Shown here piece after piece: positions 10,416 through 35,207 of a stretch of 36,898 nucleotides of DNA (positions are counted from its first letter, which is position 1; the number at the start of each line of letters is the position of its first letter). The translations under genes and the position numbers were made by a program. The notes beneath the pieces were generated by a model. It saw only the letters and a program-made list of their open reading frames with translations, did no database searches and had not been told where the DNA came from. The stretch covers positions 1-36,898 of the forward strand of contig JAUSCU010000025.1 in NCBI GenBank assembly GCA_030651065.1. The letters run 5' to 3'. Origin of the DNA: Candidatus Omnitrophota bacterium (GTDB taxonomy: Bacteria; Omnitrophota; Gorgyraeia; 1-14-0-20-64-10).

Positions 10416-10432
10416 AGGACTCCTAGCTTAGC
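10411..10432 (-). repeat. 22-bp direct repeat, copy 1 (start region of the acetolactate synthase gene)
   Basis: TTCATAGGACTCCTAGCTTAGC, identical to 11847-11868. Confidence 0.9.
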
Positions 10433-10438
10433 CGGAAA

Positions 10439-11851
10439 CTATCCTTTAAGCCAGCGGACGCGGCGGTCCGACTCCCGGCGCGCCAGGAAGCGCTCCCATT
10501 GAGCCAAACGGAGCGGTTCCTCCGGCATCGGAAACCGGGCGTGGATCTTCTCTTTCAAGTCGGGATGAAACCGGAAGTAGACCCCCAGGTCATAAGGATA
10601 GGAGGCCTCATCGACTCCGATGAAATCGCCCTGGAGGCGGGCCTTGCGAAGGATCGACCTCCATTCTTGAATGGAGGTCTGGCCCATCCCCAGCACGGAG
10701 TTCGCGAAGAGGGTCAGGTAGACCTCGTTGAACGGTCCCCGCCGCCGGATATACCGCTCCAGTTCCCGGGCCGATCTGCCCGTGTTGAAGACCATCCAGA
10801 AAGGGATCGATCCCGTCCGCAGGCACCACCAGGGATCCAGGAGAAGGAAGTCTTCCGCCAAAATCCGGCTGGAACGAATCCCACGCTTCCGGTACCAGTC
10901 CCGGTACAAGTCGGCCACCAATGGGCTGACATCGGCCGGATCTTCGAAGACGAGGCGGCGCACGCGCCACCCCTGGCGCTTGGCCAGCCGCCGGAGATCT
11001 TCCAACAGCTCCGGCTCGAACCCCCATTCCGCCTCCGGGCGGTTCGCGTCCGGCTTCGGGATATCCCAGCGCCGGAAACGGGATCCCTGTTCTTTCAGAA
11101 AACGGGCCACCCTGGGGCCGCCGGAAAGGTACCCCTTCGCCTCCAGCCCTCCGTACCCGCCCACCTGAAAATAGTGCCGGGGGCCCAGCTGGCTCATCGG
11201 CCACGAATAGCGGCATTCGGCCACCATCAGCGTTCCGCCGCGGGGAAGGCTCTTTTTCAAGAAGCGTTCGTACGTTTCGTCCAGCCGCAAGTACTTGATC
11301 CGGAAATATCCCATCTGCCGGATCATCAGCCGGTCTTGGACAGGATCGCGCATCTGGTTGATCTGCATCCCGGGGTTCCGCTCCAGGAAACGGGCGGCAG
11401 GCTCCTTGAACGATTCCATGTCCTTTCTCACCGCGTCCGGATCCAGCCGGGAGCGGCGGCGCACCGGGACCAGGACCGTTTGCGGCAGCCACGGAATCCC
11501 CAGCGCCGCGCACAAATGGATCAGCGCCCCCCCGGAAGAACCGATCATCACCGCAGGGTAAGTCCTCTTCCTGGGGTACTTCTGGACCACCCACTGGGAG
11601 ATGTTCTTGGAACTCAGCCGCGCGATCTCTTTGGGGAGAACCGCTTCGCGGCGCCCGCCGAAGATATAGATGAGTTTACGAAATAACTTGGGCGGCGCGT
11701 TCACCCACGCCGCCATCGCGCGGCTGGGCGGCACGAACCCCATTCCGGATATGTCTTTCCCGCGCAGGTAGTTCGCCGTCGCCAGCAGCATCGTCGAAGA
11801 AGAATCAATCTTGGCGATGCAGCGGTCCGCCAGCGATACCGGTTTCTTCAT
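10439..11851 (-). CDS. Hypothetical protein (470 aa, very basic)
   Basis: Long ORF with AGGAG upstream, co-directional with its neighbours. Motif-like stretches (MIGSSGGALIHLCAALGIPWLPQT, QVGGYGG, PEAEWGF), but no function recognised. Confidence 0.8.
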   Translation of the reverse strand: MKKPVSLADRCIAKIDSSSTMLLATANYLRGKDISGMGFVPPSRAMAAWVNAPPKLFRKLIYIFGGRREAVLPKEIARLSSKNISQWVVQKYPRKRTYPAVMIGSSGGALIHLCAALGIPWLPQTVLVPVRRRSRLDPDAVRKDMESFKEPAARFLERNPGMQINQMRDPVQDRLMIRQMGYFRIKYLRLDETYERFLKKSLPRGGTLMVAECRYSWPMSQLGPRHYFQVGGYGGLEAKGYLSGGPRVARFLKEQGSRFRRWDIPKPDANRPEAEWGFEPELLEDLRRLAKRQGWRVRRLVFEDPADVSPLVADLYRDWYRKRGIRSSRILAEDFLLLDPWWCLRTGSIPFWMVFNTGRSARELERYIRRRGPFNEVYLTLFANSVLGMGQTSIQEWRSILRKARLQGDFIGVDEASYPYDLGVYFRFHPDLKEKIHARFPMPEEPLRLAQWERFLARRESDRRVRWLKG

Positions 11852-23108: not shown

Positions 23109-25530
23109 CGAAGAAAAGCTGACGGGCCTCTCCGCGCAGGAAGCCGCCCGCCGGCTCAAAATCGAAGGCCGCAATGAGCTGCCTTCCGGGAAATCCCGCA
23201 CGCCGCTCCGGCTAGCCTGGGAGCTCGTTCGGGAACCAATGATCCTGCTTCTGCTCGCCTGCGGGATCATCTATCTTTTCCTCGGGGACTTCCGCGAAGC
23301 CCTCCTGCTGGCCGCCTCCATCGGCTTGATCCTCGGGATCAGCCTTGTTCAGCAGGGCCGAACCGAGCGGGCGCTCCAAGCCCTCAAAGACCTCTCCGCT
23401 CCGCGCGCGCTGGTGATCCGGAACGGTAAGCGGACGCGGGTCTCCGCCCGGGAGCTGGTGCGGGAAGATCTCGTCGTGCTGATCGAGGGGGACCGGGTCC
23501 CGGCCGACGCGCGGGTGATCTCCTGCGCCCACCTCTCGGTGGATGAGTCCCTGCTGACCGGCGAATCGGCGCCGGTCCGGAAATCGGCCTCACCGGACCC
23601 CCTGCCTCCCCCGCGTCCCGGCGGGGAGGACCTCCCTTTTGTTTTCGCCGGCACCCTGGTTATCCAGGGAGACGGTCTCGGTGAGATTCACGCCACCGGC
23701 CTCCGCACCGAGATGGGAAAAATCGGAAAATCCCTGCAAGCCATCGGACGGGAGGAGACCCGCCTGCAAGGGGAGGTCCGGCGGATCGTCCGGATCTTTG
23801 CCGCGGCGGGACTTTCCGTCTGCGCGGGGGTGGCTCTCCTGCACGGGCTGCACAGCGGCAACTGGCTCCAGGGGTTCCTGGCGGGACTAACGCTGGCGAT
23901 CTCGCTGGTACCGGAGGAGTTCCCCGTCGTGCTGACCGTCTTCCTGGCGCTGGGGGCCTGGAGAATCTCCCGCCGCGGGGTGCTTACCCGCCGGGTGCCG
24001 GCCATCGAGATGCTGGGGGCCGCCACTGTTCTCTGCACCGACAAGACAGGCACCCTCACGCTCAACCGGATGCGGGTTCAGCGCCTGATGGCGGACAGCT
24101 CCGTATTTAACCTTCCCTCCGGGGAGATCGTCTCTGTGCCGGAGGGGTTCCGCGCAATGGTCTCCCGCGCCGCGCTGGCCAGCCATCCGGAAGCGTTCGA
24201 CCCGATGGAGCTGGCGATCCACGCCCTCTCAAAGCAGGCCCTGCCAGACGCGCGGCCGGAGAACTGGAAACTGGTACGCCGCTATCCCCTTTCCAAGGAG
24301 CTGATGGCGATGTCCCAAGTTTGGCAGCAGGAGAGCGGTCCCCTCCGGGTTGCTTCCAAGGGAGCGCCCGAAGCGATCGCGGATCTGTGCCGGATGCCGG
24401 AGGCCGCTCGCCGGCTTCTGCTGGAGGCGGCCCACGCGATGGCCCGGGATGGTTTGAGGGTCATAGGTGTGGCCGAGGGAACGGCCGCTTCCGGTCCCCT
24501 GCCGGAGCGGCAGGACCGGTTTTCCTTTTCCTTCCTCGGACTGATCGGCCTTTCCGACCCGATCCGGCCGGCGGTGCCCGCGGCGATCCGTGAATGCCGC
24601 GGGGCCGGCATCCGGGTCGTGATGATCACTGGTGACTATCCGGAGACCGCCCGCCAGATCGCCCGGCAGATTGGGCTGGAACCGCTGGATCAAGTTTTAA
24701 CGGGGCGGGAGATGGAGGCCCTGGACGACGCGGGACTGCGGGAGAAAGCCAAACAAGTCAGTATCTTCGCGAGGATCGTTCCGGAACAGAAGCTGCGGCT
24801 GGTCAACGCCTTCAAAGCGGACGGCGAGATCGTCGCGATGACCGGCGACGGCGTCAACGACGCGCCGGCCCTCAAGACGGCCCACATCGGCATCGCCATG
24901 GGCGGGCGCGGCACCGACGTCGCGCGGGAGGCAGCGTCGCTGGTGCTGCTCAACGACGATTTTTCATCCATCGTCCGGGCGATCCGGCTCGGCCGGCGCG
25001 TGTTCGACAATCTGCGCCGGGCGATGTCCTATCTCTTCGCGATCCACGTGCCGATCGCCGGCATGGCGCTGATCCCAGTTCTGCTGAGGGGGCCCCTGGT
25101 GCTGCTGCCGGTACACATCGTTTTCCTGGAAATTATCATCGACCCGGCCTGCTCGATCGTTTTCGAAGCGGAACCTGCGGAGAAGGATGTAATGAACCGG
25201 CCGCCGAGGAACCCGAAGGAGCCCCTATTTAACCGGAGCCGGGTAGCCAGAAGCCTTCTGCAGGGGGCAGCCATGCTGGGAATCGCGCTGGGGGTCTATC
25301 TCGCCGCGTGGGCACTCGGAAAACCGGAGTGGGAGATCCGGTCCCTGACCTTCACCTCGATGATCCTCGCCAACTTGGGGCTCATTCTGGTGAACCGCTC
25401 CGGAGGCGGGCTCACCGCGCTGCGTTCGCCCAACCCGGCCCTCTGGTGGGTGATGGGGAGCGCGCTGGCGGTGCTGGGTCTCGTTCTTACCGTGCCGTTC
25501 CTGCGGGAGATCTTCCGCTTCGCCCCTTAA
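23089..25530 (+). CDS. P-type cation-transporting ATPase (type II-like)
   Basis: TGES, PEEFP, DKTGTLT phosphorylation site, KGAPE, MITGD, GDGVNDAPALK. Confidence 0.93.
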   Translation: MPPVRNSEEKLTGLSAQEAARRLKIEGRNELPSGKSRTPLRLAWELVREPMILLLLACGIIYLFLGDFREALLLAASIGLILGISLVQQGRTERALQALKDLSAPRALVIRNGKRTRVSARELVREDLVVLIEGDRVPADARVISCAHLSVDESLLTGESAPVRKSASPDPLPPPRPGGEDLPFVFAGTLVIQGDGLGEIHATGLRTEMGKIGKSLQAIGREETRLQGEVRRIVRIFAAAGLSVCAGVALLHGLHSGNWLQGFLAGLTLAISLVPEEFPVVLTVFLALGAWRISRRGVLTRRVPAIEMLGAATVLCTDKTGTLTLNRMRVQRLMADSSVFNLPSGEIVSVPEGFRAMVSRAALASHPEAFDPMELAIHALSKQALPDARPENWKLVRRYPLSKELMAMSQVWQQESGPLRVASKGAPEAIADLCRMPEAARRLLLEAAHAMARDGLRVIGVAEGTAASGPLPERQDRFSFSFLGLIGLSDPIRPAVPAAIRECRGAGIRVVMITGDYPETARQIARQIGLEPLDQVLTGREMEALDDAGLREKAKQVSIFARIVPEQKLRLVNAFKADGEIVAMTGDGVNDAPALKTAHIGIAMGGRGTDVAREAASLVLLNDDFSSIVRAIRLGRRVFDNLRRAMSYLFAIHVPIAGMALIPVLLRGPLVLLPVHIVFLEIIIDPACSIVFEAEPAEKDVMNRPPRNPKEPLFNRSRVARSLLQGAAMLGIALGVYLAAWALGKPEWEIRSLTFTSMILANLGLILVNRSGGGLTALRSPNPALWWVMGSALAVLGLVLTVPFLREIFRFAP

Positions 25531-25789
25531 GAAGCTTCCGGGTTTTTTCCGCGCGGCTCCACCCTTTGATCTCGGCTTCCCGCTTCAAGGCGGAACTTCG
25601 GGTGGACTGCGCTTCCCGGAAAACCAGCCGGACCGGTTTCCGGGAGCGAGTGTAGGCGCCCCCCTTTCCGGCGTTGTGGGTTTTGATCCGGCGGCCCAAA
25701 TCGGTCGTGATGCCGGTGTAAATCGATCCGTCGCGGCACCGGACCGCGTAAACGAACCAACGGGAAGGGGCTGCTTTTTTAAGCTTCAA
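25487..25789 (-). CDS. GIY-YIG nuclease family protein (YhbQ/UPF0213-like); start uncertain
   Basis: WFVYAVRCRDGSIYTGITTDLGRRIKTHNAGKGGAYTRSRKP...ALKREAEIK. Confidence 0.88.
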   Translation of the reverse strand: MKLKKAAPSRWFVYAVRCRDGSIYTGITTDLGRRIKTHNAGKGGAYTRSRKPVRLVFREAQSTRSSALKREAEIKGWSRAEKTRKLLKGRSGRSPAGTAR

Positions 25790-25853
25790 GGGAGTGAAAC
25801 GGGCCAAACTGTCGAGAGTATTGTACCAACCGCGCATGCTAAAATAAAAACGA

Positions 25854-26129
25854 ATGAATGGAAAACCTAAAAAAATAGGCCGGTCGCCGAACATAAGCTC
25901 CCATGAAACCCCCGGAGGATCGGTTATCCTCTCTCATGAAACGGGTAATCTCTTTTCACTCAATGTCACTGGAACGGAGATTTGGGATCACTGCAGAGAA
26001 GAGCGCTCTATCGATGAGATCGTATCGTTTATGAGCCAAAAATATGGCCTCCAAACAGAGGCTTTCCGGACCGAAATCTTGTCTTACGTGGAACAGCTGC
26101 AGCAGGCGGGTTTCTTCAGAATGCTCTGA
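25854..26129 (+). CDS. PqqD family protein / RiPP recognition element (RRE) 1
   Basis: 91 aa with VILSHETGNLFSLNVTGTEIWDHCREERSIDEIVSFMSQKY...YVEQLQQAGFF PqqD pattern. Confidence 0.9.
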   Translation: MNGKPKKIGRSPNISSHETPGGSVILSHETGNLFSLNVTGTEIWDHCREERSIDEIVSFMSQKYGLQTEAFRTEILSYVEQLQQAGFFRML

Positions 26130-26133
26130 GTCG

Positions 26134-27189
26134 ATGGACGCGAACCCCGTTATCCCAAAGTTGATTCGAGCCGCCCTTGAGAAGGAACCTTGCCTGAAGA
26201 TTTCCTCCACCGGCACAAGCATGCTGCCCACGATCCGCCCCGGCCAGACAATCTGGATTGCTCGAGTTCGGCCCGAAGAAATCCGGCCCGGAGATATCAT
26301 TTTGATCCAGAGCTCTTCGTCCTTGGTCCTCCACCGGCTCCACCGTATCGAAAAAAGAGAGGGCGCTTCGCCTGTTTTTATCACGAGCGGGGACGCCTCG
26401 GGAAAGCTGGATACCCCCTGCCGAGCCGAATCCATTCTGGCAAAAGTCATCAAGATTCAGGAGGATTCGGGAAGCGGTTTCCTGGATAAATTTTCCAATG
26501 GGTTTATCCGTTCTTACGAAAACCTCTTCGCTTTTCCATACCGGACCTATCAACGGTGTGTAGGAAAACAATGGTACGGCCTCCTTCACCGCACCGTCCG
26601 AAAAGTGTCGGGCGGACGTCCGGTGGCAGCCCCGCTGATGGCCCTTTTCCCAATGGGTTCCCGAGCCATGGCGTTGGTTCCCCTAAGGAGGGCCCTTCGA
26701 AGGAAAGCGGCTTCGCTCCATCGTTTTCTGCCGGGAGGAACCGTTGAAAAACGGGGAACGCCGGACTCCGTCGAGCCGATCCTCGAACTGTGGAACCGCT
26801 CCGTTCCCCATCCCTCCGGCGAAAGCGCAGACAACCTGAAAAAGGAGTTCCTTGCGGCTGATCTTCCCGGGCAAAACTCATTCTGTTTTACTTTTACACG
26901 GCACGGAAAGACGCTGGGATTCCTGTCGGGATACGGGAGTTCTATTCAAGCCATTGCCGTGGATCCTGATTTTCGAAGAAAAGGCATCGGCTCCGCATTG
27001 CTGGAGGCGCTGTTGAAAGAGGCCCGGCGGCGAGGGGTTCGACAACTGGTCGTCTCGAGAAATCAGGGTATTTTCCCTAAGGTGGAGTTTTCAAAGTATG
27101 AGTCTGTGGTGCTTTTCTTTTCACGATGGGGATTCTCCGTTGAAACGACCTGGGAGGGACAGCTTGTCTGCCTGAGGTTTGCGTTATGA
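26134..27189 (+). CDS. S24/S26 peptidase - GNAT acetyltransferase fusion
   Basis: N-terminal GTSMLPTIRPG...PGDII...LHRL...ITSGD (S26, Ser/His). C-terminal IAVDPDFRRKGIGSALL...FFSRWGF (GNAT motif A). Confidence 0.85.
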   Translation: MDANPVIPKLIRAALEKEPCLKISSTGTSMLPTIRPGQTIWIARVRPEEIRPGDIILIQSSSSLVLHRLHRIEKREGASPVFITSGDASGKLDTPCRAESILAKVIKIQEDSGSGFLDKFSNGFIRSYENLFAFPYRTYQRCVGKQWYGLLHRTVRKVSGGRPVAAPLMALFPMGSRAMALVPLRRALRRKAASLHRFLPGGTVEKRGTPDSVEPILELWNRSVPHPSGESADNLKKEFLAADLPGQNSFCFTFTRHGKTLGFLSGYGSSIQAIAVDPDFRRKGIGSALLEALLKEARRRGVRQLVVSRNQGIFPKVEFSKYESVVLFFSRWGFSVETTWEGQLVCLRFAL

Positions 27190-27301
27190 AACTGCCGCTC
27201 TCCCTCCTCGTTCTTACGCTGAATGAGGCCAAAACGCTTCCCTTCTGTCTCGCGCCGCTGAAAGACCATGTTTCGGAGATCCTGGTCTGCGACACCGGAT
27301 C
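27149..27301 (+). repeat. 153-bp near-identical block, copy 1
   Basis: Matches 29444-29596 with 4 mismatches by manual alignment; spans the GNAT 3' end and the GT 5' end. Confidence 0.9.
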
Positions 27302-28406
27302 GGCGGACGGGACCCCTCGCATTGCAAAGCGGCATGGCGCAACCGTTTTTTTTCGACCGCCCGTGAAAGACGGCCGGCTGGACAGGGCGAGGAATTTCCT
27401 GATTGAGAAGGCCGCGCAGCCGTGGATTTTGTTTATTGACGCGGATGAGCAAATCGCTCGAAAGAGCATCCCCTTGCTCAGAGCTCTGATCCTGCGTCCA
27501 AAAGCGGACACCTATTATTTTCCGAGAAGAAATTATTCCGATACCCTTCCCGTTTTGTATGAATGGCATCCCTGCCGCCGGGAATATCCGCGGGAAGAGC
27601 GATTTTCCCGTTGTCACGGTTATTATGAAACGCCCCGGATCTGCCTTTTCAGAAATCAACCCCGGCTTCGCTATGAAGTTCCGGTTCATGATTCGCTCCT
27701 GCCTGCCATACAACGCCACGGCATTTGCATTCAACCGGCCGATCTGCCGATTCACCATTTTGAGTTTCACAAAGGAATGGGGCATCACATCGAGAAACAC
27801 CGGTTCTACGCGAAAATCCTCAAAAGGCTCATCCGCCGCGTCCCCGCATACACCCCCGCCTATTTTTCCGTTGTTCGCGATCTGATAGCCAGCGGCTCCA
27901 ATCCCAAGGAAACACTCCGCTTCGCGCAGCGCCTGACGGCGAAAGCTTCGCACTCGGACGACGCCTGGACATTACGGGGGGTCGTCGAAATGGAAGCTGG
28001 GCGATACCTGGAAGCGGAAGCTCATTTTAAAAAAGCCATCCGGCTTGAAAAATCCGCCCGGAACCTGTGCTTACTCGGCTGGCTTTATCTGAAAAAGGGG
28101 GATTATTCGTTATCCGAGAAAATCCTGAAGGAATCGCTTGGAAAATCGCCTCTCCAACCGCTCACCTTGAATCTGTTGGGAATCGCGCGGGAAAGGACGG
28201 GGGAAATAAAAAAAGCGCTCCGCTCTTTTTCAGAAGCCGGCAGGATCCATCCCGGCTACGCCGAGAGCTTTTATAATCAGGCCGTGATCCGGGGGCGTTT
28301 AGGGGACCTGCGCGGGTCGAGAAAGAATTACGAGAGGTCGCGTCAGCTCTTTTCGGCGATGAGGATGTGGCGCATCGAGTCGGGCGTCGGCGGATCGGCA
28401 TCGTAG
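27186..28406 (+). CDS. GT2 glycosyltransferase with C-terminal TPR repeats (copy 1)
   Basis: TLNEA..LP.CL, DTGSADGT, ARN, WILFIDADE, VHD; TPRs AWTLRG...AEAHFKKAI, LNLLG, FYNQA; ATGA coupling to the upstream gene. Confidence 0.9.
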   Translation: MKLPLSLLVLTLNEAKTLPFCLAPLKDHVSEILVCDTGSADGTPRIAKRHGATVFFRPPVKDGRLDRARNFLIEKAAQPWILFIDADEQIARKSIPLLRALILRPKADTYYFPRRNYSDTLPVLYEWHPCRREYPREERFSRCHGYYETPRICLFRNQPRLRYEVPVHDSLLPAIQRHGICIQPADLPIHHFEFHKGMGHHIEKHRFYAKILKRLIRRVPAYTPAYFSVVRDLIASGSNPKETLRFAQRLTAKASHSDDAWTLRGVVEMEAGRYLEAEAHFKKAIRLEKSARNLCLLGWLYLKKGDYSLSEKILKESLGKSPLQPLTLNLLGIARERTGEIKKALRSFSEAGRIHPGYAESFYNQAVIRGRLGDLRGSRKNYERSRQLFSAMRMWRIESGVGGSAS

Positions 28407-29158
28407 TTTCCGCAGACCTGCTTGAGCGCGAGGCCAGCTTTTCGAAACATCGCTTCAAGTTCTTCAACGGCGTAGATTCGAATAGAAAACGAGAACTCCT
28501 TGCGTTTCCCGTTCTTTAAAATTCTAATTCTCTTCTGGACGTTGCGCCCCGTGGCGGGGTCAAATTGTCTTTCCACGAGGACCGCCGAACCATCGGAAAA
28601 TTGCTGCCAGTCCTTTACCTTCTCGCGGTAGGTACGGGCGATGTAGTCCCGGTTCATGATGTCGAGCACGAACCTGCCACCCCGCTTCAACGCCTTCGCT
28701 GTTTGATCAAGGGTTTTTTGATCTTCTTCATCGCTTTCCAGGCAACCGAAAGCACTAAAGAGGTTCAGCGCGACATCGAACGTGTCCTCGAAAGGAATCT
28801 CGCGCATGTCTCCCCTGACCCAACGCACAGAAACCTCGGCACGGTTTGCCGCTTTTTTCGCTTCGTCGAGGAAAAACGAGTTAAGGTCCTGTCCGGTGAC
28901 ATGGTAGCTGCGGCGCGCCAACTCGATCGAATGGCGCCCGTGGCCGCAGGGGCAATCCAAGATTTCATCGCCTCGCTTGAGCGCGAGCGTCTTTTCAAGA
29001 AAATCAATCTCCGCGAGAGTTCTCTCCGGCGTGAGATCGTATACGTACTCTTTCAGATAATGGGGGCCGAAAAATCCGGCCTTTTCACTGTACCAGGGGG
29101 CTTGAAACGGATGAACACGCGCAATCGCAGACCTAACAGCTTGCCGCAGGGGCAACAA
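28343..29158 (-). CDS. Class I SAM-dependent methyltransferase (copy 1, intact)
   Basis: ILDCPCGHGRHS motif I, TGQD, GDMREIPF, FDVALNLFSAFG, LKRGGRFVLD; TTG start uncertain. Confidence 0.9.
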   Translation of the reverse strand: MLPLRQAVRSAIARVHPFQAPWYSEKAGFFGPHYLKEYVYDLTPERTLAEIDFLEKTLALKRGDEILDCPCGHGRHSIELARRSYHVTGQDLNSFFLDEAKKAANRAEVSVRWVRGDMREIPFEDTFDVALNLFSAFGCLESDEEDQKTLDQTAKALKRGGRFVLDIMNRDYIARTYREKVKDWQQFSDGSAVLVERQFDPATGRNVQKRIRILKNGKRKEFSFSIRIYAVEELEAMFRKAGLALKQVCGNYDADPPTPDSMRHILIAEKS

Positions 29159-29179
29159 GAACCCTTTTGGGCCGCTCTC

Positions 29180-29293
29180 TTAGGTGGCTGAAGAAACCAT
29201 GAAACGGATATTCCCCTCGCGAGTCGCCTTGGGCGGCTCGTAGACCGCTTTCTTATCCGAACCGGATTGTTTTGAGGCTTTCTTGTTCTTCAT
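29180..29293 (-). CDS. Putative RiPP precursor peptide 1 (37 aa)
   Basis: Not in the ORF track. AAAAGGAGGG RBS; MKNKKASKQSGSDKKAVYEPPKATREGNIRFMVSSAT*; lasso-type YxxP..G leader motif; paralogous to 31517-31651. Confidence 0.85.
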   Translation of the reverse strand: MKNKKASKQSGSDKKAVYEPPKATREGNIRFMVSSAT

Positions 29294-29443
29294 GGAGTCC
29301 CTCCTTTTTATCCTTCAACGTTTTACAGCGCTACTCTATAAAAGATATCATAGATATGACACTCTGGGAAAATTAACTGACCTTTTTCTTGGAGCTGGTT
29401 TTTATTCTTCACGCTTTTGCACAGCTTTCATAATATAGGGCAT

Positions 29444-29596
29444 CCTGGGAGGGACAGCTCGTCTGTCTGAGGTTTGCGTTGTGAAACTGCCGCTCTCCCT
29501 CCTCGTTCTTACGCTGAATGAGGCCAAAACGCTTCCCTCCTGTCTCGCGCCGCTGAAAGACCATGTTTCGGAGATCCTGGTCTGCGACACCGGATC
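29444..29596 (+). repeat. 153-bp near-identical block, copy 2 (duplication junction)
   Basis: Begins with an orphan remnant of the GNAT gene 3' end (WEGQLVCLRFAL*) directly after AT-rich intergenic DNA. Confidence 0.9.
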
Positions 29597-30692
29597 CACG
29601 GATGGAACCCCTCGAATCGCGAAACAGCTCGGCGCGACCGTTTACTTTAAACCACCCCTAAAGAACGGGCAGTTCCATCAGATCAGAAACTTTTTGCTAA
29701 AAAAAGCCGCGCACCCCTGGATTCTGTTTATTGACGCGGATGAGCGAATTGCCCAAAAAGACATTCCTTCTCTCAAAGAACTAATCTTGCGTCCAAAAGC
29801 GGATGTCTATTCCTTTACAAGACGAAATTACTCCAATCTGCTTCCCTTCCTGTATGAATGGCATCCGTGCCGCGGAGAATACCGAAAGGAAGAGCTGTTT
29901 TCCCGCTGCCACGGTTATTATGAAACATCCCGGATATGCCTTTTCAGGAACATCCCTCAACTCCGTTACGAACTTCCAATCCACGAAACGCTAGCGCTTT
30001 CCATACAACACACCGGCATTCGCATTCAATCGGCCGCTTTCCGAATTCACCATTTTGAATTTCGTAAAGGGGTGGCGCATCACCTTAAAAAACACCGTTT
30101 CTACGCGAAAATCCTTAAGAAGTCGGCTCATCGTTTGCCCGAATACACGCCGGCCTATCTTTCCCTGGTCAGCGATTTGATGGCCTGCGGCGGCTCGGCC
30201 AAAGAAACAATCCATTTCGCCCGGCGGTTGACTACACAAGTTCCATGGTCGGACACCGCTTGGAACCTAAGGGGCGTCGCAGAAATGGAAGCCGGCCGGC
30301 ATAGGGAATCGGAATTGCATTTCAAAAAAGCGATCCAACTAAAAAAATCGGCCCGAAACCTGTGCTTGCTTGGTTGGCTCTACCTGAAGAAAAGAGATTA
30401 TTCATTATCTAAAAAAATGCTGAAAGAATCTCTCGGAAAATCGCCTTCCCAGCCCCTTACTTTGAACCTGCTGGGGATCGCTCACGAAAGGACCGGGGTG
30501 ATGCGCGAAGCTCTTCGTTTTTTCTCGGAAGCCGGACGGATCCATCCCGGCTACGCCGAGAGTTTTTACAATCAAGCGGTGGTCCAGGGACGTTTAGGAG
30601 ACCTGCGCCGCTCAAAACAAAATTTCAACCGAGCGCGCCGGCTTATGTCAGCTTTTATCGGCGACGACGATGCAGCGCAGAGAGTCCGCTGA
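29481..30692 (+). CDS. GT2 glycosyltransferase with C-terminal TPR repeats (copy 2)
   Basis: Colinear paralogue of 27186-28406; GTG start; DTGSTDGT, WILFIDADE, IHE, TPRs. Confidence 0.9.
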   Translation: MKLPLSLLVLTLNEAKTLPSCLAPLKDHVSEILVCDTGSTDGTPRIAKQLGATVYFKPPLKNGQFHQIRNFLLKKAAHPWILFIDADERIAQKDIPSLKELILRPKADVYSFTRRNYSNLLPFLYEWHPCRGEYRKEELFSRCHGYYETSRICLFRNIPQLRYELPIHETLALSIQHTGIRIQSAAFRIHHFEFRKGVAHHLKKHRFYAKILKKSAHRLPEYTPAYLSLVSDLMACGGSAKETIHFARRLTTQVPWSDTAWNLRGVAEMEAGRHRESELHFKKAIQLKKSARNLCLLGWLYLKKRDYSLSKKMLKESLGKSPSQPLTLNLLGIAHERTGVMREALRFFSEAGRIHPGYAESFYNQAVVQGRLGDLRRSKQNFNRARRLMSAFIGDDDAAQRVR

Positions 30693-31472
30693 GAGGGGAT
30701 CGGCATTGTGGCTTCCATACATCTTCTTAATCGTCAGCCCGGCTTTGCGCAACATTCCCGCAAGCTCCTCAACGGTATAGACGCGAATGAATAACGAGAA
30801 TTCTTCGCGATGGCCGTCTTTGCGAATCCTGATTCGCCTCTGAAGATTGCGTCCGGTCGCGCGGTCAAACTGCCTTTCAACCATAACCGCTGAGCCGTCG
30901 GAAAACTGTTACCAGTCCTTCACTTTCTCACCGTAGGCGCGGACAACATATTCCCGGTTCATGGTGTCGAGCATGAATTTGCCGCTGCGTTTCAGCGCCT
31001 TTCCTACTCGATCGAGAGCATTCTGATCCTCCTCGTCGTTCTCCAAGCAGCCAAAAGTGCTGAAGAGGTTCAGCGCAATATCGAACTTGTCCTCGAAAGG
31101 AATTTCGCGCATATCGCGCTTGATCCAACGCACCGAAACCTGAGCGCGCTGGGCGGCATTCCGCGCTTCGCGAAGAAAAAACGAGCTAATGTCCTGTCCG
31201 GTGACCTGATAGCCGCGCCGCGCTAATTCAATCGAGTGGCGCCCGTGACCGCAGGGGCAATCCAAAATCTCAGCGCCCGGTTTGAGCGCGAGCGCCTTTT
31301 CGAGAAAATCAATCTCTGCCAGAGTTTTTTTGGGCGCGATATCGTACGCGAATTCTTTCAGATAGTCCGGGCTGTAAAAACCGGCTTTTTCGCTGTACCA
31401 CGGAACTTGAAGGGATTCCTGCCTTGCAGCATAAATGAGGGCGCGCATCCGGGTAACGACAGGCCTAACCAC
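30648..31472 (-). pseudogene. Class I SAM methyltransferase copy 2, interrupted by an in-frame TAA at 30909-30911
   Basis: KVKDW*QFSDGSAVMVERQFD versus KVKDWQQFSDGSAVLVERQFD in copy 1; the frame is preserved on both sides of the stop. Confidence 0.85.
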
Positions 31473-31516
31473 CCGTTTGGCAATGCCGATAATTCCTTTA
31501 ATGGGAGAGACTGCTA

Positions 31517-31651
31517 TTAATAAATAGCTGCAATCATCTGGCGGATGTTTCCCTCCAGGGTCATGCGGGGAGGTTCATAGGAAGCTTGCTTGCCTGAATC
31601 CGCCGGGCGATCTGAAACCGATTTACCCTGAAGTTTTCTCTTTTTGTTCAT
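31517..31651 (-). CDS. Putative RiPP precursor peptide 2 (44 aa)
   Basis: Not in the ORF track. GGAGGG RBS; MNKKRKLQGKSVSDRPADSGKQASYEPPRMTLEGNIRQMIAAIY followed by a TAA TAG double stop; directly downstream of PqqD 2. Confidence 0.85.
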   Translation of the reverse strand: MNKKRKLQGKSVSDRPADSGKQASYEPPRMTLEGNIRQMIAAIY

Positions 31652-31705
31652 ATTCGCATCCCTCCGTCTTCTAGTGAATTATGCCATAAAAATTCCCCAG
31701 GCTAT

Positions 31706-31975
31706 TCAAAGGAATCGAACGAATCTCTCTCTCCGAAGTTCTTCAAAATATTGCTCGACATCCATGGCGGCTTGCTCGCGAGGAATTCCATATTTTTCAG
31801 AAAAACGACCGGCGATCTCGCTGAGCAATCTTTTTCCGTCCATTTCCTTCCATAGATACCCACCGGCTTTGTTCAAAAAACGATAGTTGCCATTTTCAAC
31901 ATCCAGAATGATCCCCTCTTTCCATTTGGACTTAAAAAGAACGCCTTTGGCTGGTGCCGGTCTCTTGTTTTTCAC
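31706..31975 (-). CDS. PqqD family protein / RRE 2
   Basis: IILDVENGNYRFLNKAGGYLWKEMDGKRLLSEIAGRFSEKYGI...DVEQYFEEL; GTGA coupling to the upstream gene. Confidence 0.9.
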   Translation of the reverse strand: MKNKRPAPAKGVLFKSKWKEGIILDVENGNYRFLNKAGGYLWKEMDGKRLLSEIAGRFSEKYGIPREQAAMDVEQYFEELRRERFVRFL

Positions 31976-33633
31976 GCTTTTTCTACCGCCTTTACCATAT
32001 CCGGTATTCCGGAGGGACCATAGGTCAGCTCAAATCCCCGCGCCTCATGCGCCAGACGATTTAGAATGGCGCCGTGCGTTCGCCACAATAGGTCCCGCTG
32101 TCCATAACCGCAGTTCATCTTGTAATAATCATCGGACTTCAACCTATCAAGCGTTTGAGCGACAGACAACGGCTTCAGCGTCAACCCCCCGTTTTCCCGA
32201 AACTTGGGGAAAATGAGTTTTCTCACGCGGCAAACACTCCCTAATGGACCATCCCAAACGGCCTGAGGATGAATGCAGTGCTTGCCAACCGATCTTTCAT
32301 AATGGAATTTCTTTCGAGCCCCCGGAAAATTGCGCAAAGATACCGCCGGCAACGCTATCCGGTTTGGAAAACTTTTTCCGACCACTCCAGTTCCATCCAT
32401 TTGGATAATAGGATGCTCATCGGAATAATAACGGTATCCGGACCGCAAAAAGACCACGGATAAGGTGCTTTTCCCTGCCCCGCTTTGCCCCATGAACAGT
32501 ATCCCGTTATTTTGTTTTGAGACCAAAGCCCCATGCACCAACGTGGCTCCGCTTCTTAACAGCAAAAAGGATACCGGGAAGAGGAGGATGTTGTGATACA
32601 ACGCGTTTTCAGGGAGCGCTTGCCCCGTTTTCAAAAGAATCAGCGCCTCGGCATGGCGGGACGAAAAAGAGCATCCGATGCCGTCTTCCCACCATCGGCG
32701 CAGAGCGCACGCTTCGAGATCGCTGCCGGGATAGAATACCCCGGAACTTTTGTGACGCATATTGAGAAGCAGATCGGATGGGCCAAATTTCGCCGGAACG
32801 CTCCAAGGCCGGACGGGACAACAGAGATTTTTTCTGAGCAGAGAAAAACATTCCGGATCCGCCGAAAGAAGCCGGATCTTCCAGCCATGAAGCTGAAAGC
32901 TGACGCCGCGCGAAGCCTGCGGCAGATCGATCGCGTCCCGGGTGAGCACATTCGCGCTGCCGTCCCACCGGACAAGCCGATCCGTTAAACTGCCGGAACG
33001 CAACCGCTGAACATAGACGCAACGATCGATAAAATAAAACCGGGTCTTGCCCCAAAGACGCATAAGAAGATTCGTATCATGAGCGACCTTCAATCCAGGA
33101 TGATAACCGCCTGCGGCCCGGAGAACCGATTTCCTGAACATCACGCCTCCGTGAAAAGTGTGCCAGGGAAAACGCTGAAGGAGGCCGCTCTTCATCGGAA
33201 AACGGTTCGATTTATTTCCAAGAGGACTCGCCCACCCGAGTATTTCTTCTCGATCCCTTTTAAAAACAATGGCGTTCCCTAACACAACTCCAACTTGGGG
33301 GTATTGGTCAAAAATGCGCGCCCCCTCCGCGAGCCTTCCCGCCAGCATGATATCGTCGGAATCGTGAGGCGCTATGTACCTCCCGCGGGCATGCTTGCGG
33401 ATGTGGTTATGCCCGTATGAAGCGCCGCGATTCCGCTTGACCCGAAAAATCCGGACCCGGGCATCCTTCGCGTAAGACTGTGCTATCGCAAAAGTTCGAT
33501 CGGTTGAGCCGTCGTCATAAATGATGAGTTCGAAAGAGATTCCCTTCTGCTTCAGAACGCTTTCGATGGACGCGGCGAGAAATCGTTCGGCATTGTAGGC
33601 GGGCATTGCCACGGTGACCTTGGGATTTTTCAT
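31972..33633 (-). CDS. GT2 glycosyltransferase - HprK-related kinase fusion (alternative start 33654)
   Basis: N-terminal VAMPAYNAE, YDDGSTD, HDSDD (GT2). C-terminal LVHGA...LFMGQSGAGKSTL...YYSDE (HPr kinase-like P-loop). Confidence 0.85.
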   Translation of the reverse strand: MKNPKVTVAMPAYNAERFLAASIESVLKQKGISFELIIYDDGSTDRTFAIAQSYAKDARVRIFRVKRNRGASYGHNHIRKHARGRYIAPHDSDDIMLAGRLAEGARIFDQYPQVGVVLGNAIVFKRDREEILGWASPLGNKSNRFPMKSGLLQRFPWHTFHGGVMFRKSVLRAAGGYHPGLKVAHDTNLLMRLWGKTRFYFIDRCVYVQRLRSGSLTDRLVRWDGSANVLTRDAIDLPQASRGVSFQLHGWKIRLLSADPECFSLLRKNLCCPVRPWSVPAKFGPSDLLLNMRHKSSGVFYPGSDLEACALRRWWEDGIGCSFSSRHAEALILLKTGQALPENALYHNILLFPVSFLLLRSGATLVHGALVSKQNNGILFMGQSGAGKSTLSVVFLRSGYRYYSDEHPIIQMDGTGVVGKSFPNRIALPAVSLRNFPGARKKFHYERSVGKHCIHPQAVWDGPLGSVCRVRKLIFPKFRENGGLTLKPLSVAQTLDRLKSDDYYKMNCGYGQRDLLWRTHGAILNRLAHEARGFELTYGPSGIPDMVKAVEKA

Positions 33634-33634
33634 C

Positions 33635-34879
33635 CTAGCCCTTGGCCTTTCCATGGATCACGCGCGACAAGATGCCGATCATTCGCATGGGAAGAACACC
33701 GATCCTCTTCATGAAGTACAAGGGCCTGCTCGAAAGATATTCCGAAGAGGCCCGGGCCCTTTGCCGTTCAAATGAAATCCACCATTCCAGGAAAACACCC
33801 CAACCAAAGGCAAGCGCAGGACAATTCAGCAGCGACATCCGGATCTCCTCCGCCCCGGAAATTCCTTGCTCGATCTCCTGCGGGCGCCGCAAGACGTTCG
33901 GAACCTGGAGATCGGAACCTAAGGCCAGGGAAAGGACCGTTTTTCTGTAGCGGACCGGGAGACGGATCCCCCGGAAACGCTCTACCAGACCCAGAGACAC
34001 TGCCATCGCTGTCGTCAGTCCGGTACGGTGTGCGATTCCGAAAACATCCTCCCAGTCGATTTCTGTTCCATGTCGCTCGATAAGACAAGCCATGTCATTC
34101 ACAAGGTAGATTTGCGGCTTTCCGTCTTTCAGCAAATTAATACTTAAATAGATTATATGCCCCGCAGGGGACAACCCGGGGCAAGAGTGTGCGGTTTGGG
34201 TCCGGTAAGAATTCCACGGAACGGGACGGCATTGCCCTCGGAGCCACTGCAGAAGACGGCCGGCGGAATCCCCCTTTAGATGAAAATTGGAAGGCGTTCG
34301 GAGGAGCTCGAGAGCGATGGGGTTTTCCTCTACGCCGGTTTTTATGAACGGGAGGTCGTGATCTATTTTCCAGTGCTCTTGCCAAGTAAGCGGAAACCGG
34401 GGTTGGAACCTAAAATCCAAGGATTCGACAATGCGTACAGCGTCCGAAAGCTGCTTCTCTTCTCCGAATATCAGCACATCCAGATCGGCGCTTCCTCTGG
34501 AAATGGGAATTTCCCCATAAATCCAGCGGTGCGAGAGAGGACCCTTGACCGCGGCGAACGGGAGATCGGAATCGGACAAGGCGGAGCACAGCTGCTCAAG
34601 AGCAGCTCCTTGAATAAAATCCTTTCCCATCGCCCAAGAGTACTCCGCAGTCATCTTGCGGTTGATTTCAGCCGGCAGTTCTTTCGAAATCGGCTCCAGA
34701 TGAAACCAGAGGTAGCCGTTCAAATGGTGCGCGTTCATGAGAGAGAAAATGCGCGGCCAATCCGTTGGGCGAAGAACCCGAAGCTTGTTTAAGTACTCTT
34801 CTTTGGGATGACGGTGATAAGAGGAGCAGAGGAAGACGAACTCTTCGCAAGCCGTAAGGGGATCGGAGCTATCGCTCAT
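33635..34879 (-). CDS. Nucleotidyltransferase family protein (NTP_transf_5-like)
   Basis: DWPRIFSLMNAHHL helical N-terminus, then AVKGP....IYG...RGSADLDVLI (KG...R..DxD). Start at MSDSSDPL; the longer ORF-track version runs into tRNA-derived DNA. Confidence 0.82.
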   Translation of the reverse strand: MSDSSDPLTACEEFVFLCSSYHRHPKEEYLNKLRVLRPTDWPRIFSLMNAHHLNGYLWFHLEPISKELPAEINRKMTAEYSWAMGKDFIQGAALEQLCSALSDSDLPFAAVKGPLSHRWIYGEIPISRGSADLDVLIFGEEKQLSDAVRIVESLDFRFQPRFPLTWQEHWKIDHDLPFIKTGVEENPIALELLRTPSNFHLKGDSAGRLLQWLRGQCRPVPWNSYRTQTAHSCPGLSPAGHIIYLSINLLKDGKPQIYLVNDMACLIERHGTEIDWEDVFGIAHRTGLTTAMAVSLGLVERFRGIRLPVRYRKTVLSLALGSDLQVPNVLRRPQEIEQGISGAEEIRMSLLNCPALAFGWGVFLEWWISFERQRARASSEYLSSRPLYFMKRIGVLPMRMIGILSRVIHGKAKG

Positions 34880-34924
34880 AACCCTATTGTCCCTTCCTTG
34901 CGTCTGGTTCGTCTGGTACCAAAA

Positions 34925-35076
34925 TGGTTGCCCCGCTAGGATTCGGCGCCGAGCCCGGCCGCTCCGCGGCCACGGTGCTCGGTCGCCACTCGGCCTCGGT
35001 GGAGTCCCGTGCTCCTGCACGTCGCACGGCCTGCATAAAAGAAGCTCGGCCTCACTTCGAATCCCAGAGGGAAACC
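34925..35076. repeat. Palindromic tRNA-3'-end-derived element
   Basis: Left arm TGGTTGCCCCGCTAGGATTCG (34925-34945) contains an exact 18-bp copy of the tRNA-Gln 3' end plus CCA. Right arm CGAATCCCAGAGGGAAACC (35058-35076) is an imperfect inverse. Inner pair GCCGAGC/GCTCGGC. Confidence 0.75.
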
Positions 35077-35078
35077 TG

Positions 35079-35116
35079 ATGAAGCCGTTCGAACCAAAAG
35101 GTTCAGCCGGCTTCAT
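35079..35116 (-). terminator. Hairpin immediately 3' of tRNA-Gln
   Basis: ATGAAGCCG..GAACC-AAAA-GGTTC..CGGCTTCAT. Confidence 0.65.
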
Positions 35117-35120
35117 AAAA

Positions 35121-35191
35121 TTGCCCCGCTAGGATTCGAACCTAGACAAGCAGATCCAGAATCTGCTGTGCTACCGTTACACCACAGGGCA
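35121..35191 (-). tRNA. tRNA-Gln (anticodon CTG), CCA not encoded
   Basis: TGCCCTGTGGTGTAACGGTAGCACAGCAGATTCTGGATCTGCTTGTCTAGGTTCGAATCCTAGCGGGGCAA folds as a cloverleaf with anticodon arm GCAGA-TTCTGGA-TCTGC and T arm CTAGG-TTCGAAT-CCTAG. Confidence 0.97.
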
Positions 35192-35207
35192 AGAGAAACA
35201 GTCTTTG

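Follow-up and report, generated by a model that had tools for sequence, protein, structure and literature searches.

Phosphorylated lasso peptides of the paeninodin/pseudomycoidin type, reportedly the subject of studies by Zhu et al. in 2016 and Zyubko et al. in 2019, are tailored by an HprK-like kinase, whose target is a Ser located at the C-terminus of the RRE-bound precursor or close to it, and by a partner enzyme of nucleotidyltransferase fold that makes an addition to the phosphate. [quoted passage not shown] According to that report, the S26-type peptidase LppS cuts the precursor after T-1 only when the RRE is present and loses its activity in the S29A, H68A and D93A variants; the kinase polyphosphorylates Ser3, with LppK inactive on S3T and S3Y variants, and no activity was detected for the NTP-transferase (PMC13381572). 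As this enzyme showed no activity and the end product was left undefined, glycosylation is a conjecture even for the LPP family.

Here we analyze a window of 36,898 nucleotides and a 9.3-kb island within it that, in our judgment, probably encodes an LPP-type RRE-dependent pathway for tailoring the extreme C-terminus, a few residues long, of a small peptide made by the ribosome. The initial annotation saw an undescribed combination and a candidate new class; the same core is that of the published LPP family (PMC13381572), and the cluster is a divergent variant of this family. Both lack a cyclase and have a Ser/His/Asp-triad S26 leader peptidase of the archaeal/SipW type, a discrete RRE for a YxxP leader (leader cleavage and binding being predicted here), an HprK-like kinase and a PF14907-type NTP-transferase. 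The distances that separate YxxP from the -1 residue and from core residue 3 agree as well, and both clusters lie in glycosyltransferase-rich surroundings. New here are cores of 3–5 residues (9 in one peptide), as against 45 aa in the LPP case studied (LPP precursors span 35–200 aa); a peptidase with one or two fused GNAT domains and a kinase fused to a GT2 domain; paired RREs, each encoded with one enzyme; a GT2-TPR accessory enzyme that is conserved with this peptide subfamily; and a host that is a diderm-type groundwater MAG outside the Bacillota, to which LPPs are said to be restricted (PMC13381572). The leader consensus is GN[IL]R rather than the HQxIxFE of LPPs, the accessory enzymes include SAM-MTases, and the window, unlike LPP clusters, has no MsbA-like exporter. 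The chemistry is read by analogy, no modification having been observed here.

Borders and gene content of the island

The whole cluster lies in a low-GC island (25796–35121; GC 0.529, compared with 0.633 in the rest of the window and 0.619 in the genome). An empty-site allele is present in a second metagenome (run X2), where a contig of depth 9.2 runs from position 25795 straight on to 35122, with 6 other letters in place of the 9326 bp left out; the junction at 35122 falls at a tRNA-Gln(CTG) gene (35120–35192, minus strand; ARAGORN) on the right border. The cluster is a discrete, horizontally acquired island adjoining tRNA-Gln.

Every ORF within the island was accounted for. All genes listed in the initial annotation, including two paralogous short peptides, lie where it placed them (Pfam, NCBIfam, ORFs), and the absence of a lasso cyclase, B2 protease, radical SAM or exporter among the genes at 25854–34879 is borne out; a 2.3-kb tandem duplication and an in-frame TAA in one methyltransferase gene are to be added to its description. 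Because the host genome (1.40 Mb) is 88.7% complete, the absence of genes elsewhere is not proven: a search for the PF13471 B2 protease gave 0 matches, and the only MsbA-like gene found is on contig C38. The Asn-synthase homologue on contig C80 fails the lasso-cyclase model, with 274.7 bits against the cut-off of 525, and passes the AsnB model (502.7 vs 267.1).

An HprK-like kinase, a nucleotidyltransferase-fold partner and a lasso-type leader motif are common to the island and paeninodin-type clusters, whereas the Asn-synthetase-like cyclase is absent, an S26 serine peptidase replaces the B2 cysteine protease and the peptide tail is much too short for a lasso. In the NCBIfam HprK-related kinase A/PqqD cassette (TIGR04352) and the SynChlorMet cassette (ScmC/ScmD), too, a P-loop protein distantly like HprK is paired with a member of the PqqD family, but the window scores far below the cassette cut-offs (TIGR04352 45.5 vs 200, ScmC 20.1 vs 125) and has no radical SAM partner.

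Precursor peptides and their RREs

Precursor A1 (29180–29293, minus strand; 37 aa) has a basic N-terminus, a YEPP motif and the tail SSAT, and A2 (31517–31651, minus strand; 44 aa), which begins 54 nt after the RRE gene pqqD2, has a YEPP motif and the tail AAIY, in which Tyr is the sole hydroxyl residue. Their ribosome-binding sites are GGAGG and GGAGG-type, respectively, and they are the only two ORFs with a YEPP motif in the 1.40-Mb genome. A1 belongs to a family with 22 distinct members, which come from 11 loci and 16 database proteins (19–77 aa, E<=0.001, 5.77 billion searched) and share the motif Y/G-x-x-P-x5-G-N-[IL]-R. At position 16, 17 of them have T, 3 have I and 2 have V. The tail that follows measures 3 aa in 11 of the 22; five others have a 4-aa tail, five a 5-aa tail and one a 9-aa tail. 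The third tail residue is Ser in 16, and every tail contains S, T or Y. The family spacing Y1, P4, T16, S19 is the same as that of the LPP motif YxxPxVLxHQxIxFETxxS. A1 and A2 break with the family pattern at the two sites of greatest weight in LPPs, with V or I rather than T at -1 and A or I rather than Ser at tail position 3.

These small ORFs weigh against reading the island as a plain glycan-modification locus, without any peptide pathway, where the presence of PqqD-like genes and small ORFs is incidental. The generic nature of the GT2, GNAT and MTase families, and the fact that no island family reaches an NCBIfam equivalog cut-off, fit such a locus; but the small ORFs are protein-conserved across loci whose enzymes are <45% identical, always adjoin PqqD genes and carry the RRE-binding YxxP motif, and the related locus L051 encodes a sulfotransferase-PqqD fusion, i.e., a tailoring enzyme with a built-in RRE. 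We regard this explanation as highly improbable.

The only 2 PqqD matches in the genome are PqqD1 (25854–26129, plus strand; PF05402, E 4.4e-15), a discrete RRE heading the peptidase operon, and PqqD2 (31706–31975, minus strand; PF05402, E 1.3e-15), a discrete RRE in the kinase operon whose start overlaps the stop of the kinase gene by 4 nt. The profile of this RRE family matches the lasso and LPP RRE structures TbiB1 (3.3e-20), PbaB1 (1.3e-13) and LppB (8.1e-12), with PqqD itself ranking lower (3e-8), a likeness to LPP RREs by profile that does not establish membership of their clade. As single sequences, PqqD2 matches PbaB1 at E 0.0026 and LppB at E 0.13 and PqqD1 gives no LppB match at E<=1, so that neither, taken by itself, resembles LppB more than it does the lasso B1 proteins. 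A predicted PqqD2-A2 complex (ipSAE 0.53; runs 0.52, 0.53 and 0.56; partner pLDDT 58; best of 3 controls 0.00) passes a mark that, in the calibration of the tool, was reached by 58 out of 80 solved complexes and by 2 out of 110 mismatches. This weakly supports binding of A2 by PqqD2, and the pass may reflect the similar RRE-leader complexes that are already solved.

Tailoring enzymes and the proposed pathway

The S26 peptidase-GNAT fusion (26134–27189, plus strand; TIGR02228 E 1.7e-12, Acetyltransf_1 E 1.7e-10) is the proposed leader peptidase and N-acetylase. Its S26 domain scores 47.4 bits against the archaeal-type signal peptidase I model TIGR02228 of NCBIfam, just below the 51.85 cut-off, and S29, H67 and D87/D93 are invariant in the alignment of 5 of 5 fusion homologues. 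Its start probably lies 4 nt past the pqqD1 stop, as judged from that alignment and a 351-aa homologue, 89% identical, from another data set.

If this peptidase acted on some other substrate, the product could be the whole, strongly basic 35–44-aa peptide with a decorated C-terminus. The N-terminal part is indeed Lys/Arg-rich in all 22 peptides (5–11 K+R vs 0–3 D+E), the -1 and -3 residues are unlike the small ones typical of signal-peptidase sites, and A1 and A2 lack T at -1. We nevertheless consider an uncleaved product quite unlikely, given that S26-type peptidase and RRE genes are translationally coupled in the window, L052 and L023 and that LppS cuts its precursor after the aligned position in an RRE-requiring manner (PMC13381572).

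The GT2-HprK-like P-loop kinase fusion (31972–33654, minus strand) matches Glycos_transf_2 (E 1.4e-27) and HprK_rel_A, TIGR04352 (E 4.9e-12), the latter at the sub-threshold score given above, and Hpr_kinase_C at E 8.9e-6, under the gathering score. The P-loop and 20 further invariant columns are kept across 9 kinase domains, and a model of residues 299–560 (pLDDT 75.9, pTM 0.77) matches the PEP carboxykinase and HprK/P folds. Upstream lies the LppN/PsmN-type NTase (33635–34879, minus strand; longest ORF to 35116), which matches PF14907, NTP_transf_5 (E 1.6e-24; 87.3 bits, cut-off 31.2); its start is likely the Met at 34879, because the domain begins at residue 117 of the longest ORF.

A [GT2-TPR, MTase, peptide] unit is tandemly duplicated (27149–31750; period about 2295–2305 bp, 71–84% identity, repeat families D1-D3). 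GT2-TPR1 (27186–28406, plus strand; Glycos_transf_2 E 9.5e-17 and TPRs), whose start overlaps the S26-GNAT stop by 4 nt, and GT2-TPR2 (29481–30692, plus strand; E 1.2e-16 and TPRs) are 71% aa-identical, with dN/dS 0.18. As in the glycocin S-glycosyltransferases SunS/ThuS and the flagellin O-GlcNAc transferase GmaR, the GT2 domain is followed by a TPR-type (helical) domain, where a peptide substrate might be bound. The analogy to glycocins originally drawn comes down to a weak match in the N-terminal part of the GT2 domain (PDB entries: GmaR E 5e-9, SunS E 2e-7; N-terminal 85 residues only; 36–38 bits against TIGR04195 (SunS), cut-off 350), and the peptides, unlike glycocins, lack a Cys-bearing helical hairpin and a double-glycine leader. 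MTase1 (28343–29158, minus strand; Methyltransf_25 E 6.7e-18) lies 21 nt downstream of A1. MTase2 (30648–31472, minus strand; Methyltransf_25 E about 1e-17) is a 187-aa ORF followed by TAA (30909–30911), after which the same frame reads on to full length; the TAA also occurs in a contig of run X1, which may be the source sample. The dN/dS of MTase2 against MTase1 is 0.14; by these values the duplicated GT2-TPR and MTase genes are under purifying selection.

The stop in MTase2, the lack of an exporter, the loss of Ser and Thr from the A2 tail and of T-1 from both peptides, and a related strain entirely without the island are what a decaying or incomplete cluster—a lasso or LPP remnant, or a partial transfer—would display if its product were no longer made. 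We find this very doubtful: apart from MTase2 every gene is intact, the catalytic motifs and ribosome-binding sites are in place, and translation is tightly coupled; the duplicated genes have dN/dS of 0.14–0.18; the S26-GNAT recurs at 89% identity in another data set; and tails of 3–5 aa are much too short for a lasso, while the short tail is kept in 21 of the 22 family members and is therefore not a truncation.

By homology to the LPP and paeninodin-type systems, the LPP-type pathway that we favor would begin with translation of the 37- and 44-aa peptides and binding of their YEPP motif by the discrete RREs. PqqD2 would hand the peptide to the GT2-HprK-like enzyme, which would phosphorylate a hydroxyl residue within the short C-terminal tail; the PF14907 NTase, the fused GT2 domain and the two GT2-TPR enzymes could then attach and lengthen a sugar or phospho-sugar, which a methyltransferase may cap. 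PqqD1 would hand the peptide to the S26 domain for cutting after motif position 16 (V/I here, T in most relatives), and the fused GNAT would acetylate the newly exposed N-terminus, giving a 4-residue peptide that is N-acylated and phospho-glycosylated. Counting against this pathway are the departures of A1 and A2 at -1 and tail position 3 (A2 offers Tyr alone, and LppK does not act on S3Y), the lack of a dedicated exporter in the island, the premature stop in MTase2, the kinase and S26 scores below curated cut-offs and the single-sequence RRE comparisons with LppB. The RRE-guided, linear and decorated micro-peptide with S26 leader removal of the initial annotation agrees with the findings on the homologous Bacillota LPP system (PMC13381572), its chemistry here being drawn by analogy.

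Related loci and their glycan-type surroundings

The peptides recur in homologous clusters, the same cassette surrounding them in the same-class genomes L016, L017, L021 and L023, and the closest GT2-TPR and kinase homologues are on metagenome contigs L051-L053. GT2-TPR1 is 42–45% identical to GT2-TPR genes adjoining subfamily-II peptides in L051 and L052, and full-length GT2-kinase fusions are also present in L052 (two copies) and L017.

These clusters sit within glycan-type loci, and the peptide might accordingly be a primer or carrier for a phospho-linked glycan that S26 frees with a 3–5-residue stub for polysaccharide-like export. L052 encodes sugar-nucleotide dehydratases/epimerases, a GT4 and an amidotransferase of the AsnB type, for which the XrtA/PEP-CTERM amidotransferase is the nearest model (572 bits), and its ABC-2 (Wzm/Wzt-like) pair directly adjoins PqqD1-S26; PMT-like GT-C enzymes occur in L051 and L017, related loci hold three to five GT2 genes each, Bacillota LPP clusters are also located in capsule loci (PMC13381572), and a 3-residue core leaves little beyond the appended groups. 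Even so, a carrier role appears rather unlikely to us, as the window's island lacks sugar-nucleotide genes and an ABC-2 transporter and has only three GT2 domains, genes for a polymerase, a flippase or chain-length control were not seen, and a neighborhood by itself is no proof that the peptide serves as the site of glycan assembly. Beside the cassette that we read as an LPP-type pathway, L017 additionally carries an MsbA/HepA-like ABC exporter and a PF14907 protein.

Gene content and mobility of the island

The host genome (1.40 Mb in 109 contigs, 88.7% complete, the window being contig C94) has a GC content of 0.619, and within the window GC stands at 0.529 at 25.8-35.1 kb against 0.633 in the surrounding sequence. 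Every ORF of this low-GC stretch was assigned by means of Pfam, NCBIfam and an ORF listing. On the forward strand, the PqqD-like RRE gene PqqD1 (25854-26129; PF05402, E 4.4e-15) is followed by a peptidase-acetyltransferase fusion (S26-GNAT, 26134-27189) and by GT2-TPR1 (27186-28406), which overlaps the fusion gene by 4 nt; GT2-TPR2 lies further along at 29481-30692 (+). On the reverse strand, the gene for precursor peptide A1 (29180-29293) has MTase1 (28343-29158) downstream of it, and a long operon begins with the nucleotidyltransferase gene (NTase, 33635-34879/35116), continues with the glycosyltransferase-kinase fusion (GT2-HprK-like, 31972-33654), PqqD2 (31706-31975; PF05402, E 1.3e-15) and peptide A2 (31517-31651), and ends with MTase2 (30648-31472). 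Peptidase and kinase are each translationally coupled to an RRE gene of their own, a pairing that recurs in the related metagenome locus L052. The PqqD, GT2, TPR, GNAT, MTase and PF14907 matches pass their Pfam cut-offs. Between the flanking genes there is no cyclase, B2 protease, radical SAM enzyme, YcaO, LanC or exporter, so that the inventory confirms both the gene set listed in the initial annotation and the lack of class-defining enzymes that it had noted.

The flanks hold housekeeping genes: acetyl-CoA-synthetase-like, P-type ATPase and GIY-YIG genes on the left, and tRNA-Gln, DCC1-like, DUF6159 and tRNA-synthetase anticodon-binding-domain genes on the right. The tRNA-Gln(CTG) gene (35120-35192) marks where the low-GC stretch ends on the right. 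The sequence occurs in two groundwater metagenome runs that come from two studies, with 0.97 of the sampled words in X1 and 0.39 in X2; X1 may be the source sample. An X2 contig of depth 9.2 joins 25795 straight to 35122 with six other letters between, and its flanks carry many substitutions; it therefore represents a related strain without exactly these 9326 bp, that is, an empty-site allele, which makes the cluster a discrete insertion/deletion unit. Contigs identical to the island are also present in X2, at a depth of about 2-3. These sequence features are consistent with horizontal acquisition of the island; a comparison of the tRNA-Gln border with the left one showed no att-like direct repeat of ≥10 nt. 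A scan for promoters and terminators was uninformative, with 4 promoter-like sites against 4.9 expected. The longest GIY-YIG frame (25487-25894, -) extends about 100 nt into the island across the left border at 25795/25796, and hence its true start or 5' end must differ between island-bearing and island-free strains. Elsewhere in the window, two ORFs of 470 and 738 aa (10439-11851, -, and 12258-14474, +) have no Pfam match at E<=1e-5.

The unit consisting of GT2-TPR, MTase and peptide is duplicated in tandem with a period of ~2.3 kb and a nucleotide identity of 71-84%. Between the copies, dN/dS is 0.18 for GT2-TPR and 0.14 for MTase at a dS of about 1-1.4, and both duplicated genes have been under purifying selection. 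MTase2 has an in-frame TAA at 30909-30911, after codon 187 (W-stop-Q versus W-Q-Q in the paralogue), beyond which the frame is open through to its normal end at 30648; given the low whole-gene dN/dS, this stop must either have arisen recently or be an assembly error, and X2 coverage over it is too thin to count as a second confirmation. Another X2 contig (depth 3.2) jumps from 29539 to 27245, a step back of 2295 bp over the tandem duplication with 57 letters in common; either the duplicated unit varies in copy number or the repeat has misled the assembly.

Enzymes and their relation to linear polyphosphorylated peptides

The initial annotation proposed a candidate new RiPP class, a proposal overtaken by the published account of the linear polyphosphorylated peptides (LPPs), which already describes the core of S26 peptidase, RRE, HprK-like kinase and PF14907 protein (Popov et al., 2026; Nat Commun, PMC13381572). 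In that account, which defines the LPPs, two thirds are without a lasso cyclase, the clusters sit within glycosyltransferase-rich capsule loci, and the precursors are of 35-200 aa with the motif YxxPxVLxHQxIxFETxxS (Px9Fx[T/A]). The peptidase LppS cleaves after T-1, requires the RRE LppB and is inactivated by each of S29A, H68A and D93A; the kinase LppK places up to four phosphates on Ser3 and rejects S3T and S3Y substrates; and the NTP-transferase LppN gave no activity, the final product and the role of the nucleotidyltransferase not being identified there (Popov et al., 2026). The authors call the LPPs restricted to Bacillota, their data set having been gathered in February 2019 by a single BLASTP search against NCBI proteins. 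In the literature searched, a cyclase-free S26/RRE/kinase/NTase family is described in this paper alone, whose supplements may list non-Bacillota or fused forms; a literature search on the HprK-related kinase found no paper.

Like the LPP clusters as published, the window encodes an archaeal/SipW-type S26 peptidase with a Ser/His/Asp triad, a discrete PqqD-like RRE encoded with peptidase and kinase (here as two genes), an HprK-like kinase and a PF14907 NTP-transferase. The S26 domain matches TIGR02228 (E 1.7e-12) at 47.4 bits, under the cut-off of 51.85 that relatives exceed (56.7 and 59.4 bits); its residues S29, H67 and D87/D93 are invariant in an alignment of five of five S26-GNAT homologues, and the domain is 38% identical to a stand-alone 115-aa S26 protein in L032, a cluster on a Bacillota MAG contig. 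The HprK-like domain also scores under its cut-offs, for PF07475 (E 8.9e-6, 25.8 bits versus 33.3) and for TIGR04352 (E 4.9e-12, 45.5 bits versus an equivalog cut-off of 200, which relatives at 41.7-49.3 bits miss too), and the P-loop, together with 20 further invariant columns, is present in nine of nine homologous kinase domains. Modelled with AlphaFold, residues 299-560 (mean pLDDT 75.9, pTM 0.77, first 50 residues <50) have structural matches to ATP-dependent PEP carboxykinases, at E 1.9e-7 and a TMq of 0.46-0.55, and to HprK/P, at E 3.5e-6 to 1.2e-5; these two families have one P-loop fold in common. The NTase matches PF14907 at E 1.6e-24 (87.3 bits versus a cut-off of 31.2), and a PDB sequence search with it returned nothing better than E>0.3.

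The RRE family profile matches TbiB1 (3.3e-20), PbaB1 (1.3e-13), LppB (8.1e-12) and TfuB1 (1.8e-11), all ahead of PqqD proper, and the two PqqD matches found in the 88.7%-complete genome both lie inside the island. Taken singly, PqqD1 and PqqD2 have E-values slightly nearer to the lasso B1 proteins than to LppB, a member of the monophyletic LPP RRE clade (Popov et al., 2026). A lasso macrolactam cyclase (C protein) is absent from the window. The genome-wide search for one proposed in the initial annotation gave a single strong PF00733 match, on contig C80, which passes the AsnB model TIGR01536 (502.7 versus 267.1) and fails the lasso-cyclase model NF033535 (274.7 versus 525), as well as a weak match on C61 (E 6e-7, 267-aa frame); PF13471, the transglutaminase-like B2 protease, has no match in the 88.7%-complete genome. 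That the island is a lasso remnant is rejected on account of the tail of the peptides (the residues after motif position 16): at four residues in the window it is below the core length for a 7-9-residue ring plus tail, and its shortness is itself conserved. The likeness of the GT2-TPR proteins to glycocin enzymes of the SunS/ThuS type, also raised initially, did not hold: they score 36.4 and 37.7 bits against the SunS-family cut-off of 350 (TIGR04195), and A1 and A2 contain no Cys; a glycocin is rejected on these two grounds.

Precursor peptides and related loci

Six-frame motif searches of related regions revealed short ORFs adjoining PqqD genes, with a basic N-terminus, then Y-Q-K-P-T-L-K-R-L-G-N-L-R-Q-[IV]-T and then 3-5 residues only. 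A seven-peptide profile has strong matches (E <= 1.5e-10) in six genomes, among them that of the window, out of a sample of 301 from the class, with four further weak matches (E 0.002-0.007), and at E <= 0.001 a collection of 5.77 billion proteins contains 16 family peptides of 19-77 aa; a search of the PDB with the profile gave no relevant match. Pooling all sources gives 22 distinct sequences, with tails of 3 (11 peptides), 4 (5), 5 (5) and 9 (1) residues, so that 21 of the 22 fall within 3-5 residues. The residue before the tail (-1) is T in 17, I in three and V in two; Ser stands at tail position 3 in 16/22, all 22 have S, T or Y in the tail, and S-F-S and F-L-S are the commonest tails. 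The register of the family is like that of the LPP precursors as published (Y1, P4, hydrophobic residues at 6 and 12, T16 and S19; Popov et al., 2026). Its leaders have GN[IL]R where those of the LPPs have HQxIxFE, and beyond the presumed cleavage site there are just 3-5 residues.

In A1 (Px9FxV, tail SSAT) and A2 (Px9QxI, tail AAIY), the -1 residue is V and I, respectively, and the third residue of the tail is not Ser. For the RRE-peptide prediction proposed at the outset, the modelled complex with the YEPP peptide reaches an ipSAE of 0.53 against 0.00 for controls, which gives weak computational support to binding of the YEPP motif, solved look-alike complexes being in existence. The peptide at L023:704-820 (-) (G008) has G-E-K-P where all others have Y-x-x-P, with the rest of the motif kept and a tail of S-F-S-S-Y; the missing Tyr is the residue of YxxP that RREs normally bind. 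At ~9194 (+) on L035, a contig of GC 0.39, a peptide with Y-A-K-P-E-L-I-T-H-G-N-M-E-D-I-T and then a ~50-aa core lies upstream of an HprK-like kinase gene (9695-10573), and the contig also carries PqqD, an ABC exporter and a PF14907 gene; in sequence the peptide stands midway between the LPP motif as published and the G-N-[IL]-R motif.

Searched against 60 relatives, the GT2-kinase fusion protein gave kinase-domain matches in at least eight genomes among the matches listed. In the eleven kinase-matching regions inspected from those genomes a cassette recurs in which PqqD and GT2 genes accompany a 517-530-aa S26-GNAT-GNAT fusion and a kinase of the HprK-like type, free or GT2-fused. Scanning metagenomes with an alignment of two kinase sequences found the closest relatives of the window's cluster on three contigs, L051-L053 (GC 0.41-0.44; GT2-TPR 42-45% and kinase 38-42% identical to the window's), with PqqD1-like and PqqD2-like genes; their peptides share the subtype of those in the window, Y-E-x-P-x-x-T-x-E-G-N-[IL]-R, and bear the tails TASTT, SSSH and SCY. 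L052 also has an NTase, and its S26 and GNAT are separate genes. A GT2-TPR gene accompanies this Y-E-x-P subfamily. Related clusters further add ABC-2 transporters, sugar-nucleotide enzymes and AsnB-type amidotransferases, and one locus, L017, has all five LPP core components, with an MsbA/HepA-like ABC gene directly after the GT2-kinase. Motif searches recognised no precursor peptide in L015, L018-L020, L022, L024, L025 and L032, where other peptides may be in use or the peptide may lie off the contig.

On the basis of the peptide register, the S26 residues S29/H67/D87/D93, the RRE profile matches and the five-component core of L017, we read the island as belonging to the LPP kind in the functional sense and not as a new class. 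Against simple membership count the lack of the MsbA-like ABC exporter of the LPP core in the island and window (the best genomic match, on C38, is 34% identical), the V/I at -1 and missing Ser3 of A1 and A2 set beside the substrates that LppK rejects, and the single RREs that are no nearer LppB than lasso B1. Unlike in the published systems, the leader peptidase is GNAT-fused, with one domain in the window or two in subfamily I; the kinase is GT2-fused in the window, L052 (two copies) and L017; there are two RREs, one per enzyme, in the window and L052; and the hosts are not Bacillota, the window having an outer-membrane Porin_5 gene and one same-class genome being titled 'uncultured Planctomycetia bacterium'. 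The initial interpretation, a cyclase-free system for a decorated linear peptide, thus survives in part: its core was already described, and the variant features are not reported in the LPP account, supplements aside. By sequence, the 3-5-residue cores, the peptidase-GNAT and GT2-kinase fusions, the paired RREs and the non-Bacillota hosts appear to be new here.

Possible pathway and wider setting

Homology and the gene fusions suggest a pathway in which the peptide tail would be phosphorylated, glycosylated and methylated; from the S26-GNAT fusion, a cut after position 16 and subsequent N-acetylation are predicted. We consider the main value of the island to lie in its being a minimal, fusion-rich version of an LPP-type pathway: with the substrate cut to three to five residues and partner enzymes fused, it would offer a much simpler system for finding what the kinase, nucleotidyltransferase and glycosyltransferases build. 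The presence of the family in small-genome groundwater bacteria, moving as a 9.3-kb island, widens the known range of RRE-dependent chemistry, and its genomic surroundings hint that RiPP logic and the assembly of glycans may be linked. A bolder and rather improbable reading is that these are scaffold-peptide pathways, in which the leader-like peptide would only hold a 3-5-residue stub (mostly S-F-S or F-L-S) for a phospho-linked, methylated or sulfated glycan, S26-GNAT would cut off and N-acetylate the stub, and RiPP recognition would prime a glycoconjugate, surface-bound or secreted, with no lipid carrier involved, for export via polysaccharide-type ABC transporters. If true, it would tie RiPP biosynthesis to exopolysaccharide assembly and account for LPP and paeninodin clusters in capsule loci.

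Several related loci carry further enzymes. The AsnB-type amidotransferases at L052:10756-12525 (+), inside the related cluster, and C80:257-2128, on an own-genome contig with GT2 genes, are nearest the XrtA/PEP-CTERM amidotransferase model (572 and 553 bits, cut-off 817), and both are well under the lasso-cyclase cut-off. The Bacillota MAG cluster (L032:9491-15699) combines an HprK-like kinase, a radical SAM/SPASM enzyme, PqqD and the stand-alone S26 with a 466-aa sigma-70-like fusion protein and a 604-aa PF14907 protein. Finally, L051:14568-15716 (+) encodes a 382-aa sulfotransferase with a C-terminal PqqD/RRE domain and L017:2647-4608 (-) a 653-aa PF14907 nucleotidyltransferase-sulfotransferase fusion, and these domain combinations suggest peptide-directed sulfation in related clusters.
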